Positions 28,277-35,070 of a DNA stretch of 62,278 bases are shown here, piece by piece; position 1 is the first letter of the stretch; the number at the start of each line of letters is the position of its first letter. Origin of the DNA: an uncultured Nitrososphaerota archaeon (GTDB taxonomy: Archaea > Asgardarchaeota > Njordarchaeia > Njordarchaeales > Njordarchaeaceae). Both the position numbers and the translations under genes were made by a program. The stretch is taken from NCBI GenBank assembly GCA_964518475.1, contig CAZFGR010000010.1, forward strand, positions 1-62,278. Reading direction: 5' to 3'. The notes under the pieces are model-generated. The model was not told where the DNA came from, ran no database searches, and worked only from the letters and a program-made list of their open reading frames with translations.

Positions 28277-30325
28277 TTGAAAAATGCCGCAACCCCGTAC
28301 ATACTGGGCTTGGATATTCTTCCTGGGGACAGAAGAGATCCTGTCTTCGCTGCTGTAATATTGAATGAAAATGGTGAAAAACTTTTTTCGGGTGAAATAA
28401 GTAGAAATCGCTTGCTGAGCTTTATACATGAGAAAAAAATTCGCATCATAGCTATTGATAATATATTCGAGCTTTATCCCTCAACTGACGAAATAATCCA
28501 CTTCCTTAAGATATCCAAAGTGAGACTTATTCAAGTCACGGGTGCTCCAGGGAAAATGCAGAAACTTTCTCATCTAAGTAAATTGTATAAATTACATTCA
28601 GGCACAAAATTATCACCCCATGAGGCAGCTGAAGTAGCGGCAAAGCTTGCTTGGTTAGGCGTAGGATCTGAAGTTAAAGTTTTTGAAGATATAACAGAAA
28701 TAACGGTATCCCGTACCAGATCATTAGGGGAAGGTGGTCAACACCAAGCGAAGTATGCTAGAATTATTGCTTCAACGATTCAAAGTGTAGTACGGGAAAT
28801 AGAAGATACCCTAAGAAAGCACAATTTACCGTACGATATATCAATCAGAGAAGGAGACTATGGCATTAAAAGTGCTAAAATATATGTGTACGAACCCTAT
28901 GAAAAAGTCAAGGGCCTAATAAATGATTATCATGGAAGCTTATTCAGGATAGAAATTAGACCCTTAGAAAAAGAACGCTTAATATTCACTGGACGAGAGC
29001 CTCTTTCCGAAAAGAAATATTTTCTCATATGCGGTATAGATCCAGGAGAAACGACAGGCATAGCCCTTCTGGATCTTTCGGGGAACATACTATACATAGG
29101 TAGCAGGAGAGAGTTTGGATTTTCAAATATTCTTGAAACGATCTATGAGTATGGAAAGCCGGTCCTAATAGCTACCGATGTTCCTCGATTACCGCAATTC
29201 ATTGAAAAACTCTGTAAAAAAACGGGCGCGTCTCTATACATCCCAAAGCAACCAATCAGTATAAGTGAGAAAAATGAAATTGTAAGAGAACTAGGTCTTA
29301 AAGTTGCTAATACGCATGAGAGAGACGCATTAGTAGCCGCTATTATGGCTTATAAAAAGTATCAGAAAGTATTTCAACGAATTGATAAGATATTGTCCTA
29401 TATTCCTCTAGACTTGGATCCTAACGAGATAAAAAAGGACATAATTCTCGGATTATCCGTCAAGGAAGCCATATATAAAGCTTTTGAAAAAAGTATATCT
29501 TCGCTGGTAACATTGAGTGAAAAAGAAAAGAAGGTAGTGGTAACTGTTAGTGATGAAAAACTAAGAATCGAAAACGAAAAGTTAAGCAAAAAAATAGCAG
29601 AATTAGAAAAAAGAATTCACTTTCTAGAAGAAGAAATTGATTTGCTACAAAAAAGTATCAAAGAAAAGGATGCCGAAATATCATATCTTAAAGATAAGAT
29701 CTTACTAGAAAGAAGAAGATACAGACAAAAAATGATGAAAGAATTAGAAAAAGTGAAAGATCAGTACATCAGAGATTTAGAAGAAGAAATCACGCACCTT
29801 CGACTAAAGTTAGAGAGCTATCGAAAAAAGATAGAAAAACTAAACGATTTGATCCGTGAGCTACAATTAATAGTTAAAAAGAAGCCTAATGAAGTTGTTA
29901 TTAAGCGTCTTAAAACACTTAAGAAGGAGGAAATAGCTAGAATAGAGGAGATCTATGGAATAGTTCCTGGGGATGTCCTCTACGTTCAAGATCCTAGCGG
30001 TATTGGAGAAAATACTGCAAAGGATTTGGTAAGAAAGGGCGTTAAAGCAATCATTGTAGAGAGTGACTCAATTCCAGAGCAAGCTCACAGGGTGTTCGAA
30101 GACTCTAGCATTCCCATTCTATATCCTGAAGATTTTCAGCAATCCCTTAGTATGAAAGAATTTAAGGGAAATGTAATCCTAATAGATAGAGGGATCCTAG
30201 AAAAGGCTATAAAGAATTCTCGATTGAGAAGTTTACCGGAGGAGGAAAGAGAGTATTACACAGTCTTAGACATTATAAATGAATATCAAAGAAGACGCAA
30301 GAAGGAATTGCAGAATGTTGATTGA
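28277..30325 (+). CDS. DUF460 domain protein (RNase H-like domain plus long coiled coil)
   Basis: ILGLDI, IAIDNIFEL, GIDPGETTGIA, HERDALVAA, central coiled coil. Confidence 0.88.
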   Translation: MKNAATPYILGLDILPGDRRDPVFAAVILNENGEKLFSGEISRNRLLSFIHEKKIRIIAIDNIFELYPSTDEIIHFLKISKVRLIQVTGAPGKMQKLSHLSKLYKLHSGTKLSPHEAAEVAAKLAWLGVGSEVKVFEDITEITVSRTRSLGEGGQHQAKYARIIASTIQSVVREIEDTLRKHNLPYDISIREGDYGIKSAKIYVYEPYEKVKGLINDYHGSLFRIEIRPLEKERLIFTGREPLSEKKYFLICGIDPGETTGIALLDLSGNILYIGSRREFGFSNILETIYEYGKPVLIATDVPRLPQFIEKLCKKTGASLYIPKQPISISEKNEIVRELGLKVANTHERDALVAAIMAYKKYQKVFQRIDKILSYIPLDLDPNEIKKDIILGLSVKEAIYKAFEKSISSLVTLSEKEKKVVVTVSDEKLRIENEKLSKKIAELEKRIHFLEEEIDLLQKSIKEKDAEISYLKDKILLERRRYRQKMMKELEKVKDQYIRDLEEEITHLRLKLESYRKKIEKLNDLIRELQLIVKKKPNEVVIKRLKTLKKEEIARIEEIYGIVPGDVLYVQDPSGIGENTAKDLVRKGVKAIIVESDSIPEQAHRVFEDSSIPILYPEDFQQSLSMKEFKGNVILIDRGILEKAIKNSRLRSLPEEEREYYTVLDIINEYQRRRKKELQNVD

Positions 30326-31637: not shown

Positions 31638-31725
31638 AATCGCGTCTATCCTACTATTACAACTCTAAAAAGCATTTTTATATGAGAAGGAATTTGAAGA
31701 AAATGCAATTTCTATATCTTCACTC

Positions 31726-33105
31726 TTACCTTCTCTTTTTTCTTCTTTTATGCTCTTTTTCACTCATATATCTCGCCGCAGTTACGCCTAGAACTAGTAT
31801 GATCATGGTAACTAATAAAATACCAATCCATAATCTCCAGGGTTTCTCCTTTGTCTCCTCTTCTTTGACTTCGTATTTAACTTTTAAGGAAACCTCCTTT
31901 AATGAAAACTTACCGAATTTGGAATCTATGTGGGCTTGGATAATGATGATTCGCGAGTTATTGGGTATTAGGTCGATTCTGAATCTATAGATTCCCGGAT
32001 ATGAGATATTTTCCTCAAAATCACCTAATTTTAATGTATTATTCTCCTGATCTAGAATTTTGTAACTAAGAAAAACCGTTGCTGTACCAAATCCCTCTCC
32101 TACGTACACCCCTAGGTATCCTGGACTTAATTCAATCAAGTCCCATCCAGTAATATTAAGAATCGGGTAAATACCGAGACCTAAGAGACCCTTCTCGAGA
32201 ACTTGACTTATATAGATAAATGACGCATGAGAACTCTCTATTCCAATGCTTTTTCTCCAAATATAATTATCTAGTAGATATATCATAGTTGGGTACACAT
32301 TTTCAAAGCCAAAGATTTTGTAAGATCCTTTAATATTAGGAATCAATGAAGTATTATCATCATTAGTAAGCAAGACCCCTAAGCCCTTGAATTGCTCTAA
32401 CATTTTCTCATCTGAAGTATTTGTGATATCAATAACAACTACGTTTAAACGCGTCTCGCTACTCAGTTCTTTTTTTATGCCTTGCAACCAAGTAATGACT
32501 TCATTTATGCTTAACTCATCACTTCCATTAAGATACACTAGAATAGTGATGCCATGTAATTCGGTTATTTTTATTGTGCTCCCATTTAGTAATGTTATGT
32601 TCATGTTATTCAAAGGCCCGAAGAGAGGCGAAATAGTATATGGGAAACCATATCGATTGTAATAATATGAATACATTTTAGATAGAATGATTACACTTTC
32701 GTTCAACGGACAATCCTTGGAAACGTTTCTCGCAAAAAATGCTTCATAACCTCGAATATATGTCAGGTTTCCATTCTCCTCACTATCTATCGGCATCACA
32801 TCAATTTCTTTGATTATCTCCTTATCTATTCTCCCTTCGAACAATGAATCAAGAATCCATTCTATGGCTTCATAAGCTGTTGTAAAATTCATCCAACTTC
32901 CATTACTCAATTTTATCTTAACTGCGGGTATTGTGGCATTATACTGTGTAGTTATAGTATCTCCATAAGTATTATGGCTTATCATAATGCCTCTATTAAT
33001 AGTTGGGATAGTCATCAACGGGCCTTCCGAAACTATGGAGCCGTTAGTTATCAAAAAAGAGACTAAAAAAAGTAAAAGGAACTGTCGAATTTTCACATAA
33101 ATCAC
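31726..33105 (-). CDS. Surface-anchored type I membrane protein with Cys-less thioredoxin-like domain
   Basis: Signal peptide, many NxS/T sequons, redoxin-like segment, C-terminal TM and basic tail HKRRKKRR. Confidence 0.65.
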   Translation of the reverse strand: MIYVKIRQFLLLFLVSFLITNGSIVSEGPLMTIPTINRGIMISHNTYGDTITTQYNATIPAVKIKLSNGSWMNFTTAYEAIEWILDSLFEGRIDKEIIKEIDVMPIDSEENGNLTYIRGYEAFFARNVSKDCPLNESVIILSKMYSYYYNRYGFPYTISPLFGPLNNMNITLLNGSTIKITELHGITILVYLNGSDELSINEVITWLQGIKKELSSETRLNVVVIDITNTSDEKMLEQFKGLGVLLTNDDNTSLIPNIKGSYKIFGFENVYPTMIYLLDNYIWRKSIGIESSHASFIYISQVLEKGLLGLGIYPILNITGWDLIELSPGYLGVYVGEGFGTATVFLSYKILDQENNTLKLGDFEENISYPGIYRFRIDLIPNNSRIIIIQAHIDSKFGKFSLKEVSLKVKYEVKEEETKEKPWRLWIGILLVTMIILVLGVTAARYMSEKEHKRRKKRR

Positions 33106-33119
33106 CCATTAGTCTTCCG

Positions 33120-34196
33120 TTAACCCAGATTGGAGGGTTCTTTCTTCTTCTTATTATTCAGACCTTCTCCCATTATTACTCTCAAAAGCTTAAGTATTTC
33201 CTCTTGGCGTTCCTTACTCTCTCTTATAAACTCTAGAACTGCTGATTCTAAATCTTTAAGTGCATTAAAAATTTTCTCTAAGCTTAACTCGATGCTCTCT
33301 ATTCCCTTAGCTTGACGCTGCTCCTCTGTGGGTTTATGTATTTCTAAAGGCTGTTTTTCTATAACTTCCTCTTTAAGTGAAATAGAGGGCTTCTCTGCTT
33401 TTTCATATTCTATAGGTACTTCTCCTATAACTTCTTTTTCAATCGTAATTGTTTCCTCTGCTACAACGCTTGCGAGTTCTTCTTCTCTTTTCATGATTTC
33501 TTTAATGAGATCCTTAATAATGGGAGGCTCTTTTCTTTCTTCGAGAAACCAATACAGTATGTTAATGAATAGTTGAGCATTATCGTACTTGGTGATCCAA
33601 GAATTATCGAATATCTTGTAAGAACCCACTACTACTAATTTACCGATTCCGTAACGAGCCGAAGCAATAACAGGCATATTGGGAGGAGAATCCTCATTGC
33701 TGGTTAAAGCTATAGGTCTCGTATGCGTCTTTTGTTTAAGTATTAGAGAACAACCTTCTGGATATACTATTTCTTTCACATTAAATGTGAGATTATCGAG
33801 TTGCTTAAAGTTAACAAGTTTTATTACATTTCCTTCTTTGCCTCTAACAATATCGCATCTTGGATAGATACCACATAGTGCTGTGAGCTCAAAGAGATTA
33901 TTGGCTAGGTTGAGATCTCCAAATTTATCAAAAAGAACTAAGATATTACCGCCCCGCAGAAGAAAATCCTGCAGAATAGCCAGCTCTGTTTGATCATATT
34001 TATAAAGCTTCTTCGCTGGGAAGATAACTACTTGTGCCTGACTTATTTTGTTTTCATCGAATGTCTCCATAGTATCAGTTTTAAAACCAAGTTCTTTCAG
34101 AATCCTCGATAAAATACTATAATTTTCTTCTATATCGCCTTGAGCAGATTCTTGATCAAACAGTATTTGATACTTACCAGTCGCCAATGTATTCAC
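33120..34196 (-). CDS. GIFT-domain (IFT52/GldG/DUF4350-like) protein with C-terminal coiled coil
   Basis: ILFD, ELAILQDFLLRGGNILV, IVYPEGCSL, PPNMPVIA, GKLVVVGSYKIFDN..I.KYDNAQLFINILYW. Confidence 0.78.
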   Translation of the reverse strand: MNTLATGKYQILFDQESAQGDIEENYSILSRILKELGFKTDTMETFDENKISQAQVVIFPAKKLYKYDQTELAILQDFLLRGGNILVLFDKFGDLNLANNLFELTALCGIYPRCDIVRGKEGNVIKLVNFKQLDNLTFNVKEIVYPEGCSLILKQKTHTRPIALTSNEDSPPNMPVIASARYGIGKLVVVGSYKIFDNSWITKYDNAQLFINILYWFLEERKEPPIIKDLIKEIMKREEELASVVAEETITIEKEVIGEVPIEYEKAEKPSISLKEEVIEKQPLEIHKPTEEQRQAKGIESIELSLEKIFNALKDLESAVLEFIRESKERQEEILKLLRVIMGEGLNNKKKKEPSNLG

Positions 34197-34343
34197 ACCT
34201 ACTAGTCTTTCCAGACTAATTATGTAGGAATATTGATGTCTCTGAGAATTATTAAAACATAAATGCTATGAAAAGATTATCCCTTGTTAGCTTGACTAGT
34301 TTGCTCTTAGCAAATCTACTCATTGCACAATAAAAAGAGAATG

Positions 34344-34421
34344 TGGTGCCCCGGGCGGGATTTGAACCCGCGTCGCGGGATTGAGAGTCCCGCATGCTTG
34401 ACCGGGCTACACCACCGGGGC
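34344..34421 (-). tRNA. tRNA-Glu(CTC), CCA encoded
   Basis: GCCCCGG...CGGGA CTCTCAA TCCCG...TTCAAATCCCGC CCGGGGC A CCA. Confidence 0.97.
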
Positions 34422-34521: not shown

Positions 34522-35070
34522 TTATTCTCCATAGAAGAGAATTTCATTTAGTTTCATGGTAGCGATTATTATATTCTTCTTATTCTTCTCAATATCAGAC
34601 TTATATTTTGAGAGCTCCGACAAGATCTTTCTTATTTCTTTCTGTCTATCCGCATTTGAGAAAGCTTCCATTGCACGCTTTATTTTTAGTAGGACTCGTT
34701 TTAATTCTAGCCCAATTATCTTTTTATTTAAGATTTGAGAAATATGTATAACATCACTGCTTATCATTTTTTGTGCGTGATTTTCGCGTATAGCATTTAT
34801 TATTGCGTCCTCTGTTTGTACAAAAAGTTCTGAGTAATATATAGAACCTAAGACTTCTCGGGGTATTACGATTTTAGGTTTTACTCTAATTATCGCTTTT
34901 ACGTATTCCTTTTCTATCGGTAATAACCTTACTTCGGCTTCAAAAAGCTCTGTATCAAATCTTTTTAATGCTATATCTTCCTCAGATAATAGGAGAAGAG
35001 ATCTGAGATAGTTCAATGAATGATCCACACGTTTCATCTTTTGTTCAATAGTAGCTAAGAAATCGGACAA
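34522..35070 (-). CDS. Hypothetical protein
   Basis: 182-aa ORF just downstream of rpl21e with AGGTGG SD. Confidence 0.65.
   Translation of the reverse strand: MSDFLATIEQKMKRVDHSLNYLRSLLLLSEEDIALKRFDTELFEAEVRLLPIEKEYVKAIIRVKPKIVIPREVLGSIYYSELFVQTEDAIINAIRENHAQKMISSDVIHISQILNKKIIGLELKRVLLKIKRAMEAFSNADRQKEIRKILSELSKYKSDIEKNKKNIIIATMKLNEILFYGE

Follow-up and report, generated by a model that had tools for sequence, protein, structure and literature searches.

We describe here two neighbouring genes on the minus strand of a 62,278-nucleotide stretch of archaeal DNA (the window; mean G+C ca. 36%) from an Asgard archaeon of the order Njordarchaeales, whose genome is 91% complete. Gene A codes for a soluble protein with an N-terminal GIFT domain, and gene B, directly downstream, for a predicted type I membrane glycoprotein. 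Gene A is a divergent variant of a known Asgard GIFT family, and what is new is the pairing of this gene with gene B in the Njordarchaeales. From the homologies, predicted topology and fold, distribution and gene order set out below, we think it probable that gene A would provide a docking head and gene B an envelope glycoprotein, and that the pair would be co-expressed in a lineage-specific manner.

Families of the order are labelled f1 to f4, the window belonging to f1. Among 151 Asgard genomes, a member of the gene B family was detected in 12, every one of which is from the Njordarchaeales. By family, it is present in five of the six f1 genomes (the sixth contig stops at the GIFT gene), in all five of f2 and in the single one of f3, and is missing from the single f4 genome, which is 77% complete; none was found in 137 Asgard genomes of other families. 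Wherever both genes are visible in f1 and f2, gene B lies directly downstream of the GIFT gene and co-oriented with it, the two being 9-107 bp apart. The GIFT gene of the f3 genome is still beside rpl21e, which is also near it in the f1 loci, and gene B is 18.5 kb away. The linkage expected in relatives by a first-pass annotation of the window is thus found in two families, but neither in f3 nor in the 137 other Asgard genomes. There the GIFT gene adjoins genes for an ATP-dependent DNA ligase, PolB or unannotated multi-pass membrane proteins. This change of neighbours from one Asgard order to another (DNA ligase, PolB, surface glycoprotein) speaks for a docking scaffold of general use and against ties to any single pathway.

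The f3 orthologue of gene B (genome G008, L043:3952-6765) is located 33 bp downstream of a phosphoglucomutase/phosphomannomutase (PGM/PMM) gene, on the same strand. A link to the supply of sugar nucleotides for the glycans of gene B is possible.

The GIFT head of gene A and its relatives

The product of gene A has no hydrophobic segment in a 19-residue hydropathy scan, that is, neither signal peptide nor membrane segment, and there is no room for a signal peptide because the conserved domain starts at about residue 10. It is therefore soluble, as the first-pass annotation had stated. The best Pfam model is IFT52_GIFT (PF23355; E 5.7e-15, 55.5 bits with a cut-off of 27.2), while DUF4350 (PF14258) barely passes (30.7 bits, cut-off 30.4) and OST48_N and ABC_transp_aux score under their Pfam cut-offs. 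A phmmer search against the PDB retrieves the solved chains of IFT52 (5fmr_A at E 8.7e-8, also 8bd7_B and 5fms_A). BLASTP against mammalian IFT52 (P0200) gives E 6e-7 with 23% identity over 183 columns, and the aligned blocks (IVYPEGCSL/FVYPFGATL, PPNMPVIA/PLNRPILA, GKLVVVGSYKIFDNSWITKYDN/GKLAVLGSCHMFSDQYLDKEEN and ILYW/VFQW) are exactly those that had been matched to IFT52 by eye. Judged from these sequence comparisons, the head of gene A is truly homologous to that of IFT52. A model of the protein in ESM Atlas compares with IFT52, GldG and DUF4350 clusters at template modelling (TM) scores of 0.54-0.64, normalised by the query, and its neighbours there are from Promethearchaeota and Thorarchaeota. 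Past the head, the acidic linker reported earlier was recovered (Table 1), and so was the C-terminal helix, predicted at about residues 291-351 with low to moderate confidence only.

The likeness is confined to the head. Neither the central domain of IFT52 (PF23352), which true IFT52 proteins match at E 1e-33, nor its C-terminal IFT46-binding domain (PF21178), nor IFT46 itself (PF12317) had a match in the gene A protein or in the 91%-complete genome. Moreover, the IFT52_GIFT label is not specific to IFT52, since it is also the best Pfam model for prokaryotic GIFT domains that are secreted (an archaeal GIFT protein with DUF2341) or fused to TIR, HNH or Mrr domains. GldG/ABC_transp_aux (PF09822) and DUF4350 belong to the same domain superfamily as gene A. 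In bacteria and archaea, the members of these families are as a rule secreted or anchored in the membrane and go with ABC transporters, whereas gene A is soluble, scores higher with the IFT52 model and has no adjoining ABC transporter. The idea that most prokaryotic GIFT domains are extracytoplasmic, which had served as background to the first-pass annotation, turns out to be overstated, as soluble forms are common, the TIR, HNH and Mrr fusions among them. Three of these soluble fusion proteins (P0116, P0072 and P0096) carry the TIR, HNH or Mrr-type nuclease domain ahead of a C-terminal GIFT domain, a layout like that of defence proteins.

In word-index searches gene A had a single close relative and gene B had none. 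An exhaustive profile search returned 411 proteins at E <= 1e-3, and the best matches were mostly proteins of 330-570 amino acids (aa) that begin with a GIFT head and have no signal peptide; true IFT52 appeared at ca. 48-50 bits. A profile built from 49 of these heads matches 284 of 301 Asgard genomes, and 89 of the 90 high-quality ones, at E <= 1e-10. Such proteins are uncharacterised and carry automatic names (DUF4350 or IFT52 GIFT domain-containing); they share with gene A the N-terminal signal-less head, a variable linker and a helical tail, and their consensus starts with ILFDETQKERGRI. Njordarchaeales genomes outside the genus match the Asgard profile at only E 1e-23 to 1e-30, most other families at ca. 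1e-80 or better. No second copy of the typical Asgard type was seen among the GIFT matches of the window's own genome, the remaining ones being a 238-aa paralogue and large multi-domain proteins. Because of the weak Njordarchaeales scores and the lack of a second, typical copy, gene A fits a divergent, fast-evolving orthologue of the pan-Asgard protein. That the Njordarchaeales apparently carry only the gene A form suggests orthology with the Asgard GIFT-head family.

Trees were built from 94 GIFT domains over 226 columns (15 of Njordarchaeales type, 28 main Asgard, 15 IFT52 ranging from euglenids to vertebrates, 3 fusions, 19 other soluble and 14 secreted). Under LG+F+G4 the Njordarchaeales clade, the main Asgard clade (support 91) and all the rest are separate, and IFT52 is placed beside the short paralogue from the genome of the window (support 86) and the TIR/HNH/Mrr fusions (support 73). 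With LG+C20+F+G4 (posterior mean site frequency approximation, PMSF) the supported groups are the Njordarchaeales (100/98), IFT52 (100/99) and the main Asgard heads (91/91), and the backbone is a polytomy. The grouping of the paralogue, whose branch length is 1.9, with IFT52 dissolves under C20. The Njordarchaeales heads thus form a long-branched group apart from the other Asgard ones, from which they also differ by a degenerate N-terminal motif (ILFDQESAQGDI). Gene A does not nest within the secreted clades of DUF4350/GldG type, a placement that the first-pass annotation had named as one that would count against it; a sisterhood with IFT52 does not emerge from the trees either.

The 238-aa paralogue is a second soluble GIFT protein of the same genome (G000:C12:17353-17928; L007:1363-2079) with DUF4350 as its best Pfam model, and counterparts of 216-234 aa exist in most Njordarchaeales genomes. 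Three neighbouring frames of 944-965 aa (G000:C5:57263-64824; L002, L004 and L005) match GIFT profiles as well. Two of the three could be resolved, and each has two separate stretches of match, as would fit a pair of GIFT domains per protein. All three are probably ordinary extracytoplasmic proteins of the cell surface. Many tails of the main Asgard proteins (P0013, P0015, P0027, P0033) end in L-x-Y-I-x-x-R-x-x-x-G-x-[IL]-x-x-x-E-Y-x-x-Q, which we take to resemble the short C-terminal helices of SHOCT type; the Njordarchaeales proteins are devoid of this motif. Homology of the Njordarchaeales tail to these other Asgard tails was considered and rejected.

Gene B, a predicted glycoprotein with a predicted redoxin-like fold

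The longest open reading frame (ORF) of gene B runs from GTG 33105 and starts 14 bp past the stop of gene A, the spacing originally given for this co-oriented pair. GTG 33096 is the more likely start, judging from its context, as it comes 4-5 nt after the sequence GGGTGAT, in a layout repeated in the relative L001. The database call (429 aa) starts at an internal ATG, residue 31 of the longest ORF and 27-30 codons past the Shine-Dalgarno-plus-GTG start (window 32980-33105), and therefore loses the signal peptide. A basic and then hydrophobic N-terminus is present in all eight orthologues, being conserved as a feature and not as a sequence, and a C-terminal membrane helix is found in every complete orthologue. 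The cytoplasmic tail is the basic RYMSEKEHKRRKKRR. Among orthologues the tails measure 5-16 residues (e.g., YRYTE or YRKYFA) and show no conserved motif past an aromatic-basic start; apart from the window and its closest relative, none has the long basic tail. N-glycosylation sequons number 16, against 4.0 +/- 1.8 in shuffled sequences (none of 2000 shuffles reached 16), and in eight columns of the alignment six or more of the sequences have a sequon. All this agrees well with the sequon-rich type I membrane protein with a basic tail that had been described from the reading frame.

The AlphaFold2 model of gene B (eight-row alignment) has a predicted local distance difference test score (pLDDT) of 76.5 and a predicted TM score (pTM) of 0.71. 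Its thioredoxin-like domain superposes on folds of TlpA, ResA, DsbF and Sco1 type over 132-147 residues (VIA-align; Z 13-15, root-mean-square deviation, rmsd, 2.5-3 A). Foldseek matches redoxins at E 2e-5 to 1e-4, and ESM Atlas points independently in the same direction. Pfam gave no family at E <= 0.1, including Redoxin, AhpC-TSA and Thioredoxin. A second domain, a sandwich, resembles the macroglobulin (MG) domains of complement (Foldseek: C5 MG4, 6rpt, TM 0.59 by target).

Gene B has a single cysteine in its 456 residues, and none in the loop where redoxins have their CxxC. The CxxC of ResA maps to about residues 194-197 of the model, at the start of the helix 194-210, where the sequence reads YLNGSDELS. 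An N-x-S/T sequon is found in this loop in all eight orthologues, shifted by two residues in one of them; the equivalence of sequon and CxxC comes from aligned ranges and predicted secondary structure, and not from a residue-level superposition. As far as the predicted fold goes, the earlier name of "Cys-less redoxin" is apt. With the CxxC lost, the modelled protein should be unable to carry out thiol-disulfide chemistry.

Proteins of the TlpA/ResA/DsbF/Sco1 type share with gene B the thioredoxin fold, an extracytoplasmic location and a membrane anchor. The differences are several. Gene B is anchored at the C-terminus instead of the N-terminus, has an extra N-terminal region, an immunoglobulin (Ig)-like sandwich and heavy glycosylation, and carries a conserved sequon at about the position of the active site. 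The top Foldseek match to its two-domain layout, thioredoxin followed by beta-sandwich, is the C-terminal region of Mycobacterium tuberculosis DipZ (PDB 2HYX, 5CYY; E 2.4e-5). However, the superposition of the whole is poor (rmsd ca. 17 A), and DipZ is a reductase with a working CxxC, to which a multi-pass membrane domain is fused. Gene B is in this sense a small curiosity, a thioredoxin fold that has become a surface module bearing glycans and has a sequon in place of the redox cysteines.

What the pairing and the likeness to IFT52 may mean

As we see it, gene A would be a branch, that of the Njordarchaeales, of a cytosolic family with a non-enzymatic GIFT head that nearly all Asgard archaea possess. 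Like the head of IFT52, this head is probably a docking platform and not an enzyme, most likely for proteins of the cytoplasm: the GIFT domain of IFT52 contacts the tetratricopeptide repeats (TPRs) of IFT88 and the coiled coil of IFT57/38 (PMC9753473). The tail of gene A would be a lineage-specific element, most likely for self-association or tethering. Gene B would be a type I surface protein specific to the order and heavily N-glycosylated, with a disabled redoxin as its core, and its role in the cell envelope is most likely a structural or a binding one. In f1 and f2 the two genes are probably co-transcribed, if the sequence signals are read correctly, from a promoter between tRNA-Glu and gene A (the TATA-like element of Table 1) to the T-rich tracts behind gene B. 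The pairing would then amount to lineage-specific co-expression within a conserved housekeeping neighbourhood (rpl21e, the GIFT gene, gene B and DUF460), and not to a demonstrated membrane-spanning complex.

Several observations weigh against this interpretation. The docking role, most likely as we hold it to be, is purely an argument from analogy. The union of the Njordarchaeales and main Asgard clades was not recovered in the free tree, with its polytomy, and is not rejected by the approximately unbiased (AU) test (p-AU 0.41). The Njordarchaeales tail has no detectable homology to the other Asgard tails (hhalign probability 25%). The AlphaFold2 model of gene A, obtained from an alignment of two sequences, is too poor for a fold search (pLDDT 51.7). 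Lastly, the spacing of 14-23 bp and its conservation over two families could mean a real functional coupling that is invisible to sequence analysis.

Such a coupling was the essence of the first-pass annotation, which saw in the two genes a candidate transmembrane module: the GIFT protein would attach by its C-terminal amphipathic helix to the cytoplasmic tail of gene B, so that the cell surface is coupled to a cytosolic scaffold. The co-orientation and the short gap in the window speak for it, as do the adjacency kept in all scorable f1 and f2 genomes despite protein identities of 26-47%, and the opposition, in the window and its closest relative, of an acidic linker or helix in gene A to a basic tail in gene B. 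However, the f2 GIFT proteins seen (L023 and L030; P0016, P0038 and P0108) are only 227-238 aa long (230-238 aa in L023 and L030), without linker or helix, and the f2 pair is adjacent all the same. The tail of gene B, short and variable, resembles a positive-inside stop-transfer signal. A contact between helix and tail is on both counts unlikely. In addition, the genes are far apart in f3, with gene B behind the PGM/PMM gene, and elsewhere in Asgard archaea the GIFT gene has other neighbours. A complex prediction for gene A (13-row alignment) with residues 400-456 of gene B scored 0.00, which is no verdict and has no weight either way. Altogether we regard the module as improbable. Much less credible still is an accessory role in N-glycosylation, with the GIFT protein and gene B as OST48-like and OST3/6-like subunits of an Asgard oligosaccharyltransferase (OST). 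A domain of GIFT type does occur in eukaryotic OST48, as does a thioredoxin domain with CxxC in OST3/6, which also has four membrane helices; gene A has a weak match to OST48_N, and the place of gene B behind the PGM/PMM gene in f3 would also suit. But the OST48_N match (20.9 bits) is far under the cut-off of 36, and gene A, with neither signal peptide nor anchor, would not be on the side of the membrane where such a subunit belongs. In gene B there is a single membrane helix, no CxxC and no Pfam match, and with its 16 sequons the protein looks like a substrate of glycosylation and not like a subunit. We rejected this reading on topology and scores, and lineage-specific co-expression of a docking head and an envelope glycoprotein is the interpretation that we retain for the pair.

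A different question, whose answer does not exclude co-expression of the pair, is where the head of IFT52 comes from. IFT52 is the backbone of the IFT-B (intraflagellar transport B) complex, and literature searches found no paper linking it to Asgard archaea or to archaea in general. A protein with a GIFT head that is nearly universal in Asgard archaea is a plausible and testable source. The soluble Asgard GIFT family, with its Njordarchaeales branch, might have been the direct source of the IFT52 head, gene A then being a pre-ciliary relative of a core subunit of IFT-B, although we can propose this only tentatively and would sooner doubt it than accept it. In its favour are the direct pairwise similarity of the two proteins, the near universality of the family, and a layout in common, as IFT52 (OSM-6/BLD1; PDB 5FMR, 5FMS and 8BD7 chain B) is like gene A composed of a soluble cytosolic N-terminal GIFT head, a non-globular stretch and a helical C-terminus. 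Neither the grouping of the Njordarchaeales with main Asgard heads and IFT52 (p-AU 0.45) nor that of the Njordarchaeales with IFT52 (p-AU 0.29) is rejected by the AU test. However, the test also fails to reject an implausible control, in which IFT52 is joined to six secreted GIFT domains (p-AU 0.18), so the 226 columns are without power and cannot place IFT52. The free trees do not join these groups, LG+F+G4 putting IFT52 with the short paralogue and the fusions instead, and the Pfam label is, as mentioned, unspecific. Furthermore, identity is ca. 23%, the central (IFT88/IFT70-binding) and C-terminal domains are missing, there is no IFT46 in the genome, and the organism is without a cilium. 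The window contributes the most divergent branch of the Asgard GIFT family and a lineage-specific partner gene. That the family was the stock of the IFT52 head and is, in Njordarchaeales, already a cytosolic adaptor of a single-pass surface glycoprotein strikes us as very unlikely; if true, the coupling of a GIFT scaffold to membrane cargo would have a precedent in archaea, in the form of the Njordarchaeales adaptor.

Features and surroundings of the locus

From 34.4 to 31.7 kb the minus strand carries, in this order, tRNA-Glu(CTC), gene A, gene B and T-rich tracts, followed by a convergent gene for a NOL1/NOP2/Sun methyltransferase (Table 1).

Table 1. Coordinates, in the window, of the gene A-gene B locus and its elements (all on the minus strand)
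Feature	Position	Strand	Basis or remark
tRNA-Glu(CTC)	34344..34421	-	ARAGORN; directly upstream of gene A, arrangement matched in relative L001
TTTTAATAA, candidate archaeal TATA box ca. 55 nt upstream of gene A start	34249..34257	-	sequence reading, inference only
Gene A, soluble GIFT-head protein, 358 aa	33120..34196 incl. stop	-	start GTG 34196, possibly TTG 34187
Gene A, GIFT domain, residues 1-225	33522..34196	-	Pfam PF23355, phmmer, BLASTP, alignment
Gene A, acidic linker, residues 226-295, poorly conserved, net charge -8	33312..33521	-	
Gene A, C-terminal amphipathic helix region, residues 296-358	33123..33311	-	in f1, not in the f2 forms seen
Shine-Dalgarno-like GGGTGAT before gene B	33101..33107	-	GGTGAT plus GTG also in L001
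Gene B, type I membrane glycoprotein, 456 aa	31726..33096 incl. stop	-	longest ORF starts 33105
Gene B, signal-peptide-like N-terminus (MKIRQ, then hydrophobic core)	33031..33096	-	
Gene B, thioredoxin-like (TlpA/ResA/Sco1-type) domain without CxxC, residues ca. 157-303	32188..32628	-	AlphaFold2, Foldseek, VIA-align, ESM Atlas
Gene B, sequon N190-G-S192 in the strand-helix loop at the place of the redoxin CxxC	32521..32529	-	
Gene B, seven-stranded Ig/macroglobulin-like beta-sandwich, residues ca. 310-405	31882..32169	-	AlphaFold2 model, Foldseek
Gene B, C-terminal transmembrane helix, residues 420-441	31774..31839	-	
Gene B, basic cytoplasmic tail, 15 residues	31729..31773	-	
T-rich tracts 3' of gene B stop, candidate archaeal terminator	31666..31704	-	inference

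In f2 and f3 (L023, L030 and L043) gene B converges with a DUF460 gene. In the window the DUF460 gene (28277-30325, plus strand) codes for a protein with a long coiled coil, and the methyltransferase gene lies between it and gene B. On the other side of the pair, between rpl21e and tRNA-Glu, there is an ORF of 182 aa (34522-35070, minus strand) for which no Pfam family was found. Counterparts of 181-192 aa adjoin rpl21e in the f1 loci and in f3, in the place where archaea often carry rpoF.

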